Source: a virus. From it: DNA of 64,000 bases. How positions within the stretch are numbered: position 1 is the first letter of the stretch; the number at the start of each line of letters is the position of its first letter. The notes beneath the pieces were generated by a model. That model was not told the DNA's origin. It made no database searches and worked only from the letters and a program-made list of their open reading frames with translations. The position numbers and the translations under genes are program-made. The DNA is taken from positions 35,041 to 99,040 of the IMG/VR virus record IMGVR_UViG_3300013132_000033. The stretch is one strand, 5' to 3'. Shown one piece after another: positions 23,413 through 35,068 of the stretch.

Positions 23413-23550
23413 TTATTTTTTAAGTTTTTTAACTAAACGAAAGCCAAGAAAAGTAAAACGATGATTTTTCTCATAGTAAACACGTACATTTATTTTACAA
23501 ACTTCAATAACAGTACCATAAGAACCACCATAAATAAAAATATTATCCAT
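23413..23550 (-). CDS. Cassette 12: MDNIFIYGGSYGTVIEVCKINVRVYYEKNHRFTFLGFRLVKKLKK
   Basis: Manual translation, 45 aa; 8-nt overlap with cassette 11; AT-rich core. Confidence 0.85.
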   Translation of the reverse strand: MDNIFIYGGSYGTVIEVCKINVRVYYEKNHRFTFLGFRLVKKLKK

Positions 23551-23683
23551 GTTTTAATGTTTTAATTAAACGGAACCCCAAGCCGCCGTAGCGGTAGTCG
23601 GGCGTGTCGCCGCTGCGATCCGCCACCCGGCAGTACTGCGGGTAGCCGTACCACGACCCGCCGCGAATATACTTATAATTCAT
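23543..23683 (-). CDS. Cassette 11: MNYKYIRGGSWYGYPQYCRVADRSGDTPDYRYGGLGFRLIKTLKHG
   Basis: Manual translation, 46 aa; TAATG overlap; core about 74% GC (70 of 95 nt by hand count). Confidence 0.88.
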   Translation of the reverse strand: MNYKYIRGGSWYGYPQYCRVADRSGDTPDYRYGGLGFRLIKTLKHG

Positions 23684-23817
23684 TATTTCAGTTTTTTAAT
23701 TAAACGAAATCCTAAGACTTTGTAGCGGTGATCCAGCTCGTCTAAGTACTGAAAATCGGGCAAGCAACCGATTGCTAGGCTACCATAGCTACCACCACGA
23801 ATATACTTATAATTCAT
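23683..23817 (-). CDS. Cassette 10: MNYKYIRGGSYGSLAIGCLPDFQYLDELDHRYKVLGFRLIKKLK
   Basis: Manual translation, 44 aa; ATGA overlap. Confidence 0.85.
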   Translation of the reverse strand: MNYKYIRGGSYGSLAIGCLPDFQYLDELDHRYKVLGFRLIKKLK

Positions 23818-23954
23818 GTTTTAACTGTTTTAATAAGTCTAAACCCAACATAATTACAACAATATTGTTGATGACTCCACAATCGATCTGATGATTTACA
23901 CGCTAGATTATTACTAATCCACGATCCACCATAATTAATAAGATAATTTTTCAT
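23814..23954 (-). CDS. Cassette 9: MKNYLINYGGSWISNNLACKSSDRLWSHQQYCCNYVGFRLIKTVKT
   Basis: Manual translation, 46 aa; ATGA overlap. Confidence 0.85.
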   Translation of the reverse strand: MKNYLINYGGSWISNNLACKSSDRLWSHQQYCCNYVGFRLIKTVKT

Positions 23955-24091
23955 GATTTTAATGATTTAGTTAAACGAAAGCCAATGTATTGTGTCCTGA
24001 ATGACGGTCGATAAGTTGTGCGAAAATCAGTACGGCAAAATTTTAGATTAAAATTATCCCAACAACCTCCAAAAATAATAAATGTATTCAT
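23951..24091 (-). CDS. Cassette 8: MNTFIIFGGCWDNFNLKFCRTDFRTTYRPSFRTQYIGFRLTKSLKS
   Basis: Manual translation, 46 aa; ATGA overlap. Confidence 0.85.
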   Translation of the reverse strand: MNTFIIFGGCWDNFNLKFCRTDFRTTYRPSFRTQYIGFRLTKSLKS

Positions 24092-24231
24092 GATTTTAAT
24101 ATTTTAATTAATCGAAATCCAACATACAAATATTTGTAAATTGCTTTATTTCTAACATGTTCTGATGAACGATCAACTATTAAACAATTTTGATGATAAA
24201 CACCTGTTCCTTTTATAGTTATTTGGTTCAT
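24088..24231 (-). CDS. Cassette 7: MNQITIKGTGVYHQNCLIVDRSSEHVRNKAIYKYLYVGFRLIKILKS
   Basis: Manual translation, 47 aa; ATGA overlap; most divergent unit. Confidence 0.8.
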   Translation of the reverse strand: MNQITIKGTGVYHQNCLIVDRSSEHVRNKAIYKYLYVGFRLIKILKS

Positions 24232-24365
24232 AATTTTAATGATTTAGTTAAACGAAATCCTAAAGCGTTAGCATGATAATCCAATATACTAAGATTGCGA
24301 TAAACTGTAAGACAACCGTAGTTAAAACTGCTACATCCACCGCCGCGAATGTTAAAATATTTTTA
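24228..24365 (-). pseudogene. Cassette 6 lacking its start codon: (*)KYFNIRGGGCSSFNYGCLTVYRNLSILDYHANALGFRLTKSLKL
   Basis: The junction reads TGTAA where other units have TAATG, so TAA sits where ATG should be; the rest of the frame is intact. Confidence 0.7.
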
Positions 24366-24499
24366 CATTTTAATGTTTTAATTAGACGAAAACCAACTAT
24401 GTTGCTACGACACTCATGTACACCGATGTCACGATATAATACTCGACAACGCTCGGGAACGTTAATCCAGCTACCGCTACAAAGAATAAAGGTATTCAT
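24260..24499 (-). CDS. Cassette 5: MNTFILCSGSWINVPERCRVLYRDIGVHECRSNIVGFRLIKTLK plus a 35-aa read-through tail
   Basis: The expected stop at 24365-24367 is TGT, so the ORF runs out of frame through cassette 6 (79 aa in the ORF track). Confidence 0.75.
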   Translation of the reverse strand: MNTFILCSGSWINVPERCRVLYRDIGVHECRSNIVGFRLIKTLKCKNILTFAAVDVAVLTTVVLQFIAILVYWIIMLTL

Positions 24500-24633
24500 T
24501 ATTTCAGTTTTTTAATTAAACGGAAGCCAATGCTGAAGTTGCGGAAGTCCGAATCGTCCCAGCCCCGAAACGCTACCCGGCAGTACTCCGGGGAGCGGTT
24601 CCAACTACCTCCAACAATATTAAAGTATTTCAT
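24499..24633 (-). CDS. Cassette 4: MKYFNIVGGSWNRSPEYCRVAFRGWDDSDFRNFSIGFRLIKKLK
   Basis: Manual translation, 44 aa; TAATG overlap; GC-rich core. Confidence 0.88.
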   Translation of the reverse strand: MKYFNIVGGSWNRSPEYCRVAFRGWDDSDFRNFSIGFRLIKKLK

Positions 24634-24767
24634 TATTTTAATGTTTTAATTAAGCGAAAGCCCAAAAAGTTGAAGCGGCGGTCCGGCCCGCTGATGAAGC
24701 GATCCGATGCGCGGCAGAACCTGGCAGTGTTGAGCCAGCCGCCGCTAAAAACTACAAATGTATTCAT
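24633..24767 (-). CDS. Cassette 3: MNTFVVFSGGWLNTARFCRASDRFISGPDRRFNFLGFRLIKTLK
   Basis: Manual translation, 44 aa; TAATG overlap; GC-rich core. Confidence 0.88.
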   Translation of the reverse strand: MNTFVVFSGGWLNTARFCRASDRFISGPDRRFNFLGFRLIKTLK

Positions 24768-24901
24768 TATTTTAATGTTTTAATTAAGCGAAAGCCGAGA
24801 TGGCTGAAGCGGTAGTCCGGCCCGTAGAAGTTGCGATACGAAGCGCAGCAGTACACGGCATTGATGACCCAGCTGCCGCCTTTTATAATAAAGTATTTCA
24901 T
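24767..24901 (-). CDS. Cassette 2: MKYFIIKGGSWVINAVYCCASYRNFYGPDYRFSHLGFRLIKTLK
   Basis: Manual translation, 44 aa; TAATG overlap; GC-rich core with NNC codons. Confidence 0.88.
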   Translation of the reverse strand: MKYFIIKGGSWVINAVYCCASYRNFYGPDYRFSHLGFRLIKTLK

Positions 24902-25032
24902 TATTTAAGTTTTTTGATTAATCGAAAACCAAGATATTTTTCGCAATATCTTAATTTATCATAACTAGATATTGTTATACGGCAGTTTGTAATACTATTA
25001 TAACTACCGCCTTTAATTATAATTTGTTTCAT
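24901..25032 (-). CDS. Cassette 1: MKQIIIKGGSYNSITNCRITISSYDKLRYCEKYLGFRLIKKLK
   Basis: Manual translation, 43 aa; AT-rich core. Confidence 0.85.
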   Translation of the reverse strand: MKQIIIKGGSYNSITNCRITISSYDKLRYCEKYLGFRLIKKLK

Positions 25033-25053
25033 TGTCAAGTAGTGTTAAAATTT

Positions 25054-25083
25054 AAAAAGGGGGCTGCTGTTAACAACCCCCTT
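25054..25083 (-). terminator. Intrinsic terminator-like hairpin between the scaffold gene and the cassette array
   Basis: Minus strand GGGGGTTGTT-AAC-AGCAGCCCCC followed by TTTTT. Confidence 0.65.
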
Positions 25084-25089
25084 AAAAAA

Positions 25090-25698
25090 TTATTTAGGTA
25101 GTGGCATGTTTTGATCTACGGACTGAGGAATTCGTTTGTTACGATAAAAATCAATAAAGTTTTGATTTGTAACGTTTGGAACAATAGGTCCATAGACACT
25201 ATTAGTCCATTCCCACACGTTGCCGCTCATATCATACAGACCAATTGAATTTGGTTTTTTCAAACCAACAGGATGTGTTTCTCCGCCGGAATTTCCATAA
25301 TACCATGCAACTTCGTCAATATTATCAGAACCTGCGTATTTATGTGAAGTCATTTCATGACCTCCCCTTGCAGCATATTCCCACTGTTCTTCTGTTGGTA
25401 ATTCATATTTATACTTAGGATCTAACTCATTAAGTTTTGCAATAAATTTTTTGATATCGTTGTAAGATATATTTTCAACAGGTCGATTTTCCCAATCAGG
25501 ACGATTTTTAAAATACGATGGATTTTCACCCATCACATCTACCCATTGTTTTTGGGTAACAAGAAATGTTGTCATTTCAAAATTTTCAGCAATCTCAACC
25601 ATTTTGTTACGATTGGGACCGAAAAGAAATTTACCAGCAAGTACTTTTATAGTGCTGAAATTTGGGAGTGTTGGTTTAAAACCTTTTGGTTTAGCCAT
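25090..25698 (-). CDS. FGE-sulfatase (C-type-lectin-fold) domain protein lacking the C-terminal RGGSW...GFR segment
   Basis: Has VTQKQW..VMGENPS.F, PVENIS, LPTEEQWEYAARGG, VAWY..NS..THPVG.K.PN..GLYDMSGNVWEW; an unrelated tail follows, with no GGSW or GFR. Confidence 0.9.
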   Translation of the reverse strand: MAKPKGFKPTLPNFSTIKVLAGKFLFGPNRNKMVEIAENFEMTTFLVTQKQWVDVMGENPSYFKNRPDWENRPVENISYNDIKKFIAKLNELDPKYKYELPTEEQWEYAARGGHEMTSHKYAGSDNIDEVAWYYGNSGGETHPVGLKKPNSIGLYDMSGNVWEWTNSVYGPIVPNVTNQNFIDFYRNKRIPQSVDQNMPLPK

Positions 25699-25710: not shown

Positions 25711-26648
25711 TTAAAATAGTGAATGTTTTGGTTTAAATTTAACTACTTCGTTATTTGCTTGAACGATGTAGTATTGATAATTAATATTATAATCTTTTGG
25801 ATTAGTACTTTGAACTTGATTTAATAATTGACTATAATATGATTTTCCTTTTTGAGGATGCGCATTGAGATATTCATACGATCCTTTTGAATATACTTTT
25901 TTAAATATCATACCTGTTTTAGATATGATATATCTTATTGTCTTTGGTAATTTAGTTACAGTATTATTATTTGTGATACCTATAAAAGAACTATCTTGTT
26001 TAGCCCTAACGCCTATACAATAATCAAAAATATTATCACCATTAATAATTGTATCTTCTACAGGTGTGTTATACAAAAAATAATTATAAATAGCTTTTCT
26101 AACTATTAATTCAGATTTATTTTTATGTAACGGTAAATTTTCAAACTCAAAACTACCTTTACATTTTGCTTTACCATTAGTATAAATTGCAATATAATTG
26201 TTGACATCTCGAATAATCATTTTACTATAATAAGCGTATTCTAATTGAAGTCTAGTTATAGACTCCCATTGTTTACAAATATTATAATATTCTGATTCAT
26301 GTTGTTTTCTAAGTTTACAAGTTAAACCGTCTGTATTTATTTGAATAAGTGTCAAATCAGGTATTTCCATTAATTGTTCAGCTAACATTGTTAACATTAA
26401 CTGACCATTAATAGTTGTAGATAATGTATATTTAAAATCACGTAACCAAGAAGTTTCTTCATTACTTTTACCGTAGACACTATTAGCAGCTTCTTTATAA
26501 CCGGCAACAATAACAAAATCTCCATTTTTACCTTTTGCTTTTTCACGTAATCTTACATCTACAATATCTTCTTTGTAAACTCTACTAAATTCTTCTCCTA
26601 AATGTTCAGGATATAAATTATTTACTGTAGCTATACTTGGGTATAGTG
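25711..26648 (-). CDS. polB: Family B DNA polymerase, exon 2
   Basis: Frame open from 26648: (S)LYPSI completes motif A; KEAANSVYGK is motif B and QINTDGL is motif C. Confidence 0.88.
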
Positions 26649-26666
26649 CATACCCTCTGAATATTT

Positions 26667-27461
26667 CTATTCAGTTTGGACTTTATCATCAATTAAAACC
26701 TTATTCCACCAATATCCATACATACTTGGTTTTTCACCACTACATACTGCATAAATATTGTGTCGTTTGTAATCAGGGTTTTGCTCTAACAATTCATAAA
26801 CGGTATTCCATCTTTTTATTAAAGTTTGTTTATCTTTAGTATATTGATCTATATAATATTTAGTTATTTTTTGAGATTGCTTTAATATATCCTGTTTTTT
26901 AATTTCAGGATTATTTTCATATTTTTGTTTTCTAGTATATACACCTTTTACTTGAATTTCATATGGAACTTTTTTTCTATTACCTTCTTTAAAAGTTTTT
27001 AATATCTTTTCTGACATTATTTTCTTTTGTTCTTCTGTCCATTTATTATTAAAATTTGGATTGAGTTCTCCTTTCATTCTTTTTTTTAATAATTCTCTTG
27101 TTTTTTCATGAACAAAAGATTGGGAAGAAGAATCTTGTCTAAGATTATATCCATAATTTAAATCAGTAGTATTGTAATACTTCATCCAATATAATTCTCT
27201 GTCTTTAATATTATTTTGAAAATTTTCTGAATGAATATCTATTTCTTCTAAAATTTCATATATAAAATTATTTTTTCCATATTTATGCCAAGAATTAATT
27301 AAATATCTATTACAATCTTTAGATTTACTAGTTAACCCGCAAATATGATTTGCAATTCTATTATTAATATTAATTGATTTTCCAATATACCTTTTTCCGT
27401 TTATTATATTGATAATGCAATAAATTCCCGATTTGTTTTTAAGTTGTTTGTTTATCTTCAT
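26667..27461 (-). CDS. Intron-encoded GIY-YIG homing endonuclease
   Basis: SGIYCI.N..NGKRYIGKS..I..R...H, RELYW and GYN, with a NUMOD-like C-terminal region. Confidence 0.9.
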   Translation of the reverse strand: MKINKQLKNKSGIYCIINIINGKRYIGKSININNRIANHICGLTSKSKDCNRYLINSWHKYGKNNFIYEILEEIDIHSENFQNNIKDRELYWMKYYNTTDLNYGYNLRQDSSSQSFVHEKTRELLKKRMKGELNPNFNNKWTEEQKKIMSEKILKTFKEGNRKKVPYEIQVKGVYTRKQKYENNPEIKKQDILKQSQKITKYYIDQYTKDKQTLIKRWNTVYELLEQNPDYKRHNIYAVCSGEKPSMYGYWWNKVLIDDKVQTE

Positions 27462-27480
27462 ATCTTTTTTAAATTTATTA

Positions 27481-27512
27481 CAAAGATACGACGTTTCTTC
27501 TCTATATCCAAA
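27481..27512 (-). promoter_or_regulatory. Bacteroidota sigma-70-type promoter for the intron endonuclease
   Basis: TTTG-N20-TATCTTTG fits the -33/-7 consensus TTTG...TAnnTTTG, about 20 nt upstream of the ATG at 27461. Confidence 0.7.
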
Positions 27513-27740
27513 TATTTTAACAACTTTAACAAAACTTTAACGTTTTAATGCTTCCTGTTAAGTCTCTGAACCTTATTCTCATATTTTTGTGAGAATCTTG
27601 GCTGCGGATTGACCAATACTTTCTCTTTTTACTATACTCAATTGATTAGATTGACCACTATATACATCACTGTCATAGTTTAGTAAGAAAGTCTCTAAGG
27701 TTATTCCCGCAATTTAAGAAGTTTTAGTTGCGCCACTTTA

Positions 27741-28635
27741 ACGCAACATCGGCATCAAGAATTATCCAATCATTGTCAGCATTTACAATTTCAGTATTTA
27801 CACTACCATGTATACCGCCTTTACCATAATCAAATTGAAATCCTTTATAAATAAAAGATTTATTAAATTTTTCTGTTGGTTCAATATTTTTATCTTTAAA
27901 CCAATTTAATAAACCTTGTAATTCTATATTTTTAAATTGTATATACGGAAAAAGTATATCTTTTACATATACATTTGTACGTATAGTTTGTTTTTTACTA
28001 ATTTCTTTTTTATTAGCTTTAACTGCTTTACAGTATAAATCTAACATTAATTCTGATCCTATTTTACTATTACTAGCATTTATAAAATTTATACCATATT
28101 TGCTAGTTAAACTTATTCTTAACTGTAATTCTTTTTCATACAGTTTAAATAATTGATCTGTAGCATTTACATCATTAATACAATATTTTATAGTAGCATC
28201 AGCTTCTTCTCTTGAATTAACATGACCATGATAAGGCATATCTTCAAGATTTGGCCAATCAACCATAAATTCACACCATTTTAAACTTACCATTCTGTTT
28301 TTATTATCAAGATGTAATATCTTGTAAATATCAACATTAAATATAGTTCGTTTGTATATAGGAACAATTATTTCTTCTTGTTCAATTATTCTTACTGTAT
28401 ATTCATGAATTTGTTTAGCAGTTAACTTTCTTAATTTTAACAGTTCGATAATTTGACCATCAAAATTTAAATTGTTATATCCGCGTAAAGAATTAACAGT
28501 TTTTAAAAAAGCTACTAATTCATTATACTCATTTTTCCAATCACTTATTTCAAAGATTTTATAATTATCTTCATTTTTAAATACAGCACAAAAGAAATTA
28601 GGTAGAGTTTCTACATCATAAGTCCAATTTGCCAT
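27741..28635 (-). CDS. polB: Family B DNA polymerase, exon 1 (3'-5' exonuclease and start of motif A)
   Basis: YDVET, GYNNLNFD and YCINDV exonuclease motifs; GGIHG...ILDADVA. The spliced product is 610 aa. Confidence 0.88.
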
Positions 28636-30543: not shown

Positions 30544-30602
30544 TGGTAGGGAGGGAAGGACTCGAACCTTCAATTAAGAGCTCTACCTTTGAGCTACCTC
30601 CC
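30544..30602 (-). ncRNA. tRNA-like RNA lacking the anticodon arm
   Basis: GGGAGG-TAGCTCAAAGGTAGAGC-(8 nt)-GAAGGTTCGAGTCCTTC-CCTCCC-T-ACCA. Confidence 0.65.
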
Positions 30603-30609
30603 AATAAAA

Positions 30610-31602: not shown

Positions 31603-31707
31603 TGACCAAGACAGGATTCGAACCTGTACGGGATTCTGAGTCATTACTTCCTCTCGATGTTCCTCCCAGTATATTTCAACTTACGTCTACCATTTCGCCA
31701 CTTGGTC
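31603..31707 (-). ncRNA. tRNA-Leu-like shell with replaced anticodon/variable region
   Basis: GACCAAG/CTTGGTC-A acceptor, TGGCGAAATGGTAGACG D-arm and ACAGGTTCGAATCCTGT T-arm; no canonical anticodon arm. Confidence 0.65.
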
Positions 31708-32899: not shown

Positions 32900-33043
32900 T
32901 TAAAATCTAATTCTATGCTGCCATCAAAGGCTCTATGAATTAGTAACAGTCTAATACCACACCAAACCCTTTCACGGGTACGGGGTCTTGGTTATACCGC
33001 GTTCTCCGGCATGCTCGGAGCGATTATATGGTGTGGATATTCG

Positions 33044-33127
33044 TACCCGGAACAGGACTTGAACCTGTACAACCTTTTGGGTCAAGGGATTTTAAGTCCC
33101 TCGTGTCTACCATTTCACCACCCGGGC
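33044..33127 (-). tRNA. tRNA-Leu(TAA)
   Basis: Full cloverleaf; anticodon arm AGGGA-CTTAAAA-TCCCT; long variable arm. Confidence 0.92.
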
Positions 33128-33134
33128 ATTAATG

Positions 33135-33217
33135 TGGGTAAGAAGGGATTCGAACCCTCAATCCATAATGGCAACAGATTTTAAGTCTGTCGTGTATACC
33201 AGTTCCACCACTTACCC
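33135..33217 (-). tRNA. tRNA-Leu(TAA), second distinct copy
   Basis: Full cloverleaf; anticodon arm ACAGA-CTTAAAA-TCTGT. Confidence 0.92.
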
Positions 33218-34633: not shown

Positions 34634-35068
34634 TTACTGTTTCAATTTAAAGTAAACGCGTTTGTTTACTTCCCCTACGTAAGGGTGTTCTACTACTACG
34701 TATACTTCTGAAGGTGCTCCGGTGCTAGCGTAGAGCTGCCAATACGCTCCTTGAGTGTATACTTCATGGATCGCATTAGCTAGTTCAAAGCTGTAATCTT
34801 TCCCGTCTAACATCACTGGCGTAATTAGTATGCCAGTATTGTAGTTAAGGATTTGTTCTTCAAAATTTCCGTAACTATCAGAATGATATTTGAGAACTCT
34901 TTTGTTTAAGTCAAACTGAAAAATTACGTTGTCGTAATTTGCAGTCAAAACTTGAAGTCGGTTATCAACACTGTTGACAACATCTGTCTGGATATTAAAT
35001 CCAGATTGAGCGTTTACAGTTATTACTGCAAACATTAAAATACAAAATGCTGCTATGATTTTACGCAT
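34634..35068 (-). CDS. Secreted hypothetical protein
   Basis: Signal peptide ending VNA|Q. Confidence 0.6.
   Translation of the reverse strand: MRKIIAAFCILMFAVITVNAQSGFNIQTDVVNSVDNRLQVLTANYDNVIFQFDLNKRVLKYHSDSYGNFEEQILNYNTGILITPVMLDGKDYSFELANAIHEVYTQGAYWQLYASTGAPSEVYVVVEHPYVGEVNKRVYFKLKQ

Follow-up and report, generated by a model that had tools for sequence, protein, structure and literature searches.

The variable proteins of diversity-generating retroelements (DGRs), such as TvpA of Treponema denticola (structure 2Y3C) and the prototype, Mtd of Bordetella phage BPP-1, belong to the same fold family as the proteins described here, and it is the same C-terminal segment of the fold that is diversified in them. 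The locus in question occupies positions 23413 to 25698 of the window, that is, of the whole 64,000-nt stretch of DNA that was analysed (positions 35,041 to 99,040 of the IMG/VR virus record IMGVR_UViG_3300013132_000033). It consists of a gene for a truncated protein of the formylglycine-generating enzyme (FGE)/C-type lectin (CLec) type, hereafter called the scaffold, and of a tandem array of 12 short units (c1 to c12), which are homologous to the C-terminus of DGR target proteins. In contrast to a DGR, however, the diversity is here stored as about a dozen separate genomic pieces and is not made by a reverse transcriptase from a template repeat, neither of which was found; moreover, the variable segment is encoded by separate open reading frames (ORFs) and is not the end of the scaffold polypeptide.

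In the shufflon of plasmid R64 (Rci/pilV) and in the G segment of phage Mu (Gin), alternative parts are joined by site-specific DNA inversion, and one fused protein is made at a time. The present locus resembles these systems in that a constant N-terminal part lies next to alternative C-terminal parts, but its units all run the same way as direct repeats and carry start codons of their own, searches for a recombinase gene found none, and a separate stop codon and terminator close the constant gene. The inverted repeats found at the array are short and AT-rich only. In the pilE/pilS system of Neisseria and the vlsE/vls system of Borrelia, silent cassettes without start codons serve as donors for a complete copy at an expression site. 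With the array described here these systems share a tandem series of incomplete, variable versions of a single segment of a surface or binding protein, bordered by conserved sequence at which recombination can take place; the array, however, has no expression-site copy, and its units keep starts and stop/start overlaps. Finally, tandem complete CLec domains and targets with multiple variable regions are known from the DGR literature (PMC10907252, PMC5758913). They share with the array the succession of several variable regions of the same type at one locus; the published ones, however, are complete domains within one polypeptide and are diversified by a DGR, whereas here the repeated piece covers the last ~45 residues only and is encoded in separate ORFs. 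A first-pass annotation of this DNA, made from the sequence alone, knew of no described system with this architecture, and none was found in the full-text literature searched.

As detailed below, the domain is cleanly split between scaffold and units, the units are under coding constraint, both parts are conserved in relatives, and the array turns over between strains. The reading that we tentatively favour, while granting that it may well be wrong, is that of a split FGE-type CLec binder, whose scaffold would be completed in trans by separately made unit peptides.

The scaffold gene and the unit array

The scaffold gene (25090..25698, minus strand) encodes 202 aa, ending in a clade-specific tail of ~30 aa, and stops just before the RGGSW...GFR unit of the fold. 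Its product matches the Pfam FGE-sulfatase domain (PF03781) over positions 5-194 of 255 (E = 3e-29, 102.8 bits against a curated cut-off of 23.3). Over positions 214-255 of the same domain, c11 reaches 24.4 bits (cut-off 23.3) and c2 reaches 19.2 bits, which is under the cut-off; neither the scaffold nor any unit alone spans the whole domain. When placed on a profile of 250 positions built from 91 full-length homologues, and from full-length homologues only, the scaffold took up positions 60-193 and all 12 units fell at positions ~207-247 (216-245 for c7, the most diverged unit), without any overlap between the two. In the alignment, the 30-residue tail of the scaffold lies over the variable linker of the full-length relatives, and the scaffold ends at the point where these relatives go on into the strand before RGGSW. 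Because the profile positions do not overlap and the scaffold stops where its relatives continue, scaffold and units are complementary parts of one domain. On the profile, the scaffold plus one unit accounts for a single FGE/CLec domain, of which no part is left out and none is present twice. This agrees with the first-pass annotation, according to which the scaffold lacks exactly the final segment and the units supply it.

The solved structure nearest to the scaffold, both by sequence (E = 5.6e-19) and by structure, is that of the DGR variable protein TvpA (2Y3C), whose variable region is this C-terminal part of the fold (PMC5758913); this supports the equation, made in the first-pass annotation, of the missing segment with the variable region of DGR targets. 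When the scaffold was modelled alone with AlphaFold2 (AF2), residues 1-160 were predicted with confidence, and the last 42 residues (161-202) had a predicted local distance difference test (pLDDT) score below 50. Formylglycine-generating enzymes proper have paired catalytic cysteines in their C-terminal segment. The locus departs from them in that the scaffold is without the C-terminal segment and most units have a single conserved Cys; TvpA, the closest structure to the scaffold, is non-enzymatic.

The array runs from 25038 to 23413 on the minus strand and comprises 12 head-to-tail units of 133-140 nt (~134 nt), all in direct orientation. Within their 43-47 residues the units follow one layout: they open with M and a short strand of hydrophobic character, continue with GGSW and two variable stretches separated by a Cys, and close with GFRL and a basic tail. 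An ATG start is present in 11 of the 12 units, and a stop/start overlap at 10 of the 11 junctions (five of the form TAATG, four of the form ATGA and one of 8 nt, between c11 and c12). At the one degenerate junction, c5 is without the usual stop and extends to 79 aa, and c6 reads ATG-TAA at its start site. This TAA, where c6 lost its start, is the one stop codon in the unit frame, compared with 48 and 56 stops in the other two sense frames; at the base composition of the array, a 44-codon frame would be open by chance with a probability of 0.038. With their starts, open frames and conserved stop/start overlaps, both here and in relatives (see below), the units look like separately translated genes.

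An intrinsic terminator was detected by a terminator scan between the scaffold stop and c1 (25057-25083, minus strand), in the form of a 12-pair hairpin followed by a U-run. RNA folding gave the hairpin a stability of -20.2 kcal/mol (z -4.1), and none of 200 shuffled sequences was as stable. Re-reading of the sequence otherwise returned the coordinates and content of the locus as first annotated, including the 12 tandem mini-ORFs with one (c6) devoid of a start codon, the prevalence of TAATG or ATGA junctions (nine of 11), and the appearance of separate translation. The earlier list of mini-ORFs stood as to content, but needs amending in that c1 has an ATG form (24901-25032, 43 aa) and in that the terminator had gone unmentioned.

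The units, all on the minus strand, differ markedly in composition. The first, c1 (24901..25032), has an AT-rich core with a GC content at third codon positions (GC3) of 0.12, and is 43 aa long from its ATG, the program-made ORF list having started it at a TTG (45 aa). It is followed by c2 (24767..24901), which has a TAATG overlap on both sides, and c3 (24633..24767), both of 44 aa and with a GC3 of 0.84, and by c4 (24499..24633; 44 aa, GC3 0.74). The ORF of c5 spans 24260..24499 (unit proper 24365-24499) and, for want of the usual stop, reads through c6 in another frame; c6 itself (24231..24365) has kept an open frame and lost its start. Unit c7 (24088..24231; 47 aa) is without the GGSW motif and matches the full-length profile with an E-value of 0.012. 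Next come c8 (23951..24091) and c9 (23814..23954), both of 46 aa and with ATGA overlaps, c10 (23683..23817; 44 aa, GC3 0.48), and c11 (23543..23683; 46 aa), which has a GC3 of 0.94 and a core GC of 0.72 and, of all the units, most resembles the end of a full-length FGE protein. The last unit, c12 (23413..23550; 45 aa), keeps the basic tail although no ORF follows it.

Relatives of the locus and variation between strains

The same truncation is seen in all of the closest scaffold relatives: P0002-P0008 are 67-70% identical to it, have 203-206 aa and share the conserved tail, and the P0009 cluster, at 54% identity, has the truncated form as well. Full-length forms among the scaffold relatives show lower identity and partial coverage only, and no closer fused form of scaffold and unit was present among the longer proteins searched. 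The unit profile, for its part, retrieved more than 40 distinct mini-ORFs of 43-49 aa in other metagenome contigs, with the same start, frame and GFRLIKxxK tail and with differing cores. Of the related peptides, 28 have one residue past the tail, and in all 28 it is a residue for which an NNA codon exists, which is what an ATGA overlap would call for (P ~6e-6, given a background fraction of 0.65 for residues encodable in this way). The stop/start overlaps are therefore conserved in relatives too, at the protein level.

The first-pass annotation had proposed to search other genomes for a truncated FGE gene accompanied by an array of mini-ORFs. Both parts were indeed found to recur in other metagenome contigs, and they apparently occur together on six of them (57168, 105730, 5388, 6672, 6469 and 3538 bp). 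If the split family is delimited by a truncated scaffold together with several 43-49-aa GFRLIKxxK ORFs on one contig, this combination is present in the window, and elsewhere at the protein level. A second lineage, apparently on one phage-sized contig of 99,895 bp, pairs a truncated scaffold, P0104 (177 aa, with its end six residues past the WEW motif), with the six-unit protein P0259 (259 aa, six in-frame units with GFRLIE tails). Scans of metagenome and genome contigs returned only ordinary full-length FGE homologues, at up to 53% identity, and no array of short units, with one isolated short ORF with a unit match at a few loci. The scans of viral contigs revealed no related array, the single pattern match (L162) being due to chance, and GenBank phages contained only distant full-length homologues.

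Variation in the unit cores falls at the same positions as in the full-length family, but is stronger. In the nearest strain, the scaffold (P0001) is 99% identical to that of the window, and the c1 orthologues (P0127, P0129) are ~86% identical. Of the best-supported strain differences, those in the units comprise 15 nonsynonymous and 5 synonymous changes, versus 2 and 16 in nrdJ (Fisher's exact test, P = 9e-5); the nonsynonymous excess persists when a suspicious cluster in c4 is left aside (P = 0.006). Cores and flanks also appear in new combinations. That is, P0126 has a c12-like core at the position of c5, with the same read-through tail as c5, and P0128 has a core identical to that of c7 with a different 3′ flank and tail. 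In ~5% diverged strains (X4 and X5) the arrays are rearranged: X5 has c9-c7, followed by c10, ~400 nt of new sequence and c6, and a joint in X4 deletes c3 and c2. These arrays were read from metagenome contigs that run across repeats, so that single joints need caution.

In a separate locus (L028), a pair of adjacent FGE paralogues, both of full length, is 100% identical over a C-terminal unit of 138 nt (L028:6552-6690 and L028:7472-7609), which suggests a recent gene conversion of just this unit.

Beyond the split family, the unit profile matched 13,143 proteins at E <= 0.001, among which are many ordinary full-length FGE proteins and many others that repeat only the last unit, in frame. Two-unit proteins (P0277, P0313) come from the same clade as the window units and have a GFRLIKK-type tail; a diverse family of three-unit proteins has a length of ~145 aa (alignment A6); others contain four to six (P0261, P0262, P0269, P0259) or eleven units (P0258). 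In P0268 a scaffold in cis is followed by five or six units, in P0257 units stand on both sides of a complete FGE domain, and P0265 represents in-frame tandem repeats of the last FGE unit only (2-11 copies across the group). No description of such partial-domain repeats was found in the literature searched. An AF2 model of a three-unit protein showed no confident fold (pLDDT 37), which is weak evidence, the alignment being shallow. One body with several alternative ends is a recurrent design; yet the unit may have a role of its own.

Composition of the units and genome context

Within this one array, the GC3 of the unit cores ranges from 0.06 to 0.94, compared with 0.12-0.23 in the neighbouring genes. 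As a control, we examined 119 full-length FGE genes (loci L003-L161), in which the last unit (~40 codons) was found to be GC3-rich as well, with a median difference of +0.31 to the remaining codons; at AT-rich full-length FGE loci the unit mostly has a GC3 of 0.6-0.8, versus ~0.3 for the rest of the gene. High GC3 is a trait of the last unit in phage FGE genes and not proof of import, and therefore high GC alone is no evidence of capture. No adenine-biased repeat was detected within 6-8 kb of these full-length FGE loci. Capture of the units from a host DGR was considered and not supported: no near-identical donor DNA was present in 240 loci, and no template in 406 Bacteroidota genomes.

The pair c2/c3 nevertheless bears a DGR-like signature, with 12, 9 and 2 differing sites at the first, second and third codon positions, respectively, and with A at only 5 of 61 invariant bases. 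Such a bias was seen in this one of 21 unit pairs and in none of the other 20, and the template pattern that c2/c3 would imply was not found in the 406 Bacteroidota genomes. From its substitution pattern the c2/c3 pair looks DGR-made, and we take the units as a whole to be probable descendants of variable regions of the DGR type, with the AT-rich ones presumably older. In contrast, present-day action of a DGR on the array, or a shufflon mechanism, is not supported, because the genome shows neither a reverse transcriptase nor a recombinase of the tyrosine or serine type. More precisely, PF00078 had no match in the 99,040-bp record (estimated 90% complete), whereas the control genomes do match, and PF00589 and PF00239 had no match in the genome either. 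There is also no second FGE gene in the genome, nor any copy of a unit outside the array. At the locus itself, Rfam detected no intron, ribozyme or other RNA family; the genome has no suppressor tRNA, and the standard code fits.

The record, that of a freshwater crAss-like phage, has a GC content of 30%, and its terminase is closest to those of Cellulophaga phage phi14:2 and gut crAss-like phages; the sequencing runs that hold the record come from lake, freshwater and wastewater samples. Upstream of the scaffold lies a C-terminal fragment of polB, ending at 25711 (minus strand), and nrdJ starts 29 nt past c12 with no terminator in between. An assembly artefact, which the first-pass annotation had named among the outcomes that would overturn it, was examined with Logan contigs. 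In two other lake-water samples (X2 and X3) the scaffold, terminator, c1 and the start of c2 are contained in one piece with 0 mismatches, and the rest of the array is broken only at repeats. The locus is neither an assembly artefact nor a one-off.

Some features of the neighbourhood may be recorded here. The DNA polymerase is encoded in two ORFs (window 25711-28635, minus strand), of which 27724-28635 corresponds to positions 54-357 of PHROG 1252 and 25711-26397 to positions 437-654; between them lies an ORF for a GIY-YIG homing endonuclease (26667-27461), where Rfam found no intron. Rfam also matched tRNAs at 30547-30603 and 31603-31707 (minus strand; 44.4 and 37.8 bits) that were not called by ARAGORN, whose only tRNA calls are two tRNA-Leu(TAA) genes at 33043-33217.

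Possible working of the split protein and rival explanations

If the scaffold is indeed completed in trans, its gene would provide the constant body of the fold lacking the last ~45 residues, which in full-length relatives bear the variable surface turned towards the ligand as well as the GFR strand that closes the fold, and the coupled mini-genes would provide eleven versions of this missing piece, the twelfth unit being without a start codon. Transcription would probably begin past the terminator and take in both the array and nrdJ, or else reach the array by read-through, with c1 initiated at its own ATG and the later units by termination-reinitiation at the overlaps. Each peptide would contribute two framework strands (one before GGSW, the other GFRL) with the variable loops between them. 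Complementarity and co-conservation of the two parts suggest that these strands insert non-covalently into the open body, where the clade-specific tail would keep them in place. As many as eleven holo-proteins could form in this way, differing in their surfaces and perhaps in their binding specificities, and an infected cell would contain a mixture in which one body is combined with different tips. Turnover of the array between strains would proceed by recombination between the conserved AT-rich flanks. With greater reserve, we propose that one lectin-fold body, completed post-translationally by any of about a dozen tips, would form a hard-wired, germline-style repertoire, with a stock made by DGRs and reshuffled by recombination in the flanks. 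The place of the locus among replication genes, together with the lack of any virion context, is a hint of an intracellular target; such a role, like one as decoys or dominant-negatives, is guesswork.

Several points weigh against completion of the scaffold in trans. The in-frame repeats make it less likely that filling this scaffold is all that the unit is for; indeed, the scaffold-free repeats with 2 to 6 copies and the extra copies in P0257 indicate that the unit may act without an empty scaffold. The strong terminator parts the scaffold from the array, so that their co-expression is not obligatory, and there is no RNA run among the sequencing runs that hold the record. In addition, the co-occurrence of scaffold and mini-ORFs on other contigs was inferred at the protein level, from equal sizes of the contigs in bp, and the substitution counts are those of the best-supported strain differences listed. 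It could be, then, that the peptides act alone or with each other, perhaps as small binding or inhibitory modules against host FGE/CLec sensors, the role of the scaffold being a separate one. The stand-alone repeats (P0277, P0313, A6, P0261, P0262 and P0259), the two-unit fusions with a GFRLIKK-type tail in the same clade, the copies flanking the complete FGE domain of P0257 and the uncoupling of the array by the terminator would all be in line with such an autonomous role. We nevertheless consider it less likely than completion in trans, given that the units are exactly the piece that the scaffold lacks, that the two apparently recur together on at least six contigs and, as P0104 and P0259, in a second lineage, and that modelling of three units on their own gave no confident fold (from a shallow alignment).

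The array could also serve at the DNA level, as a reservoir of silent donor cassettes or as targets or leftovers of DGR retrohoming that renew some variable region. The resemblance of c2 and c3 to two variable regions from one template, the cores swapped between flanks (P0126, P0128) and the rearranged arrays of the X4 and X5 strains would be expected under this explanation, which is improbable all the same: the genome lacks an expression site in which a unit resides, the scaffold gene is closed off by a conserved tail, a stop codon and a terminator of its own, there is no second FGE gene, and searches of the record, which is an estimated 90% complete, gave neither a reverse transcriptase nor any recombinase of the tyrosine or serine type. 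Furthermore, all units lie in direct orientation, the DGR-like bias affects 1 of 21 unit pairs, and the starts and stop/start overlaps conserved across the family would be needless for silent cassettes. More improbable still is decay, that is, an array that is a functionless remnant of duplicated variable regions, as the lost start of c6, the lost stop of c5, the drift of several cores to the AT-rich composition of the phage and the mostly nonsynonymous strain differences listed might suggest; 11 of 12 frames are open, however, against a chance of 0.038 per unit, and starts, length, frame, GFRLIK tail and overlaps are kept in dozens of diverged relatives. Least probable of all, in our view, is ribosomal recoding, by which ribosomes would either slip by -1 at A-AAA-TAA or ATGA junctions, with multi-unit chains as the product, or bypass the 63 nt that separate c1 from the scaffold stop and so join the two. 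Although the next ORF is in the -1 frame at nine of 11 junctions, and the in-frame multi-unit proteins of relatives show that chained units are tolerated, the junctions contain no canonical slippery heptamer. The AAA codon before the scaffold stop and the AAA after the ATG of c1 would be in keeping with recoding, but such a pair means little at 30% GC, where AAA is common, and the hairpin that follows the scaffold gene is, with its U-run, a typical terminator. Precursors of ribosomally synthesized and post-translationally modified peptides, which combine conserved ends and a variable core with an enzyme-like neighbour, were also considered and set aside, the units being plainly the missing part of the fold.

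The known means by which phages and bacteria diversify their binders act on DNA, through hypermutation by DGRs, invertible segments or cassette conversion. If completion of the scaffold in trans is correct, diversity would here arise among the proteins, by combination of a single body with many small tips, and with no need for a reverse transcriptase, a recombinase or gene conversion. The family to which the units belong is not rare, since the proteins matched by the unit profile number in the thousands and include many partial-domain repeats. The locus would then be a case of natural fragment complementation that builds a repertoire, and its compact scaffold-and-peptide format could be of use for engineered binders.

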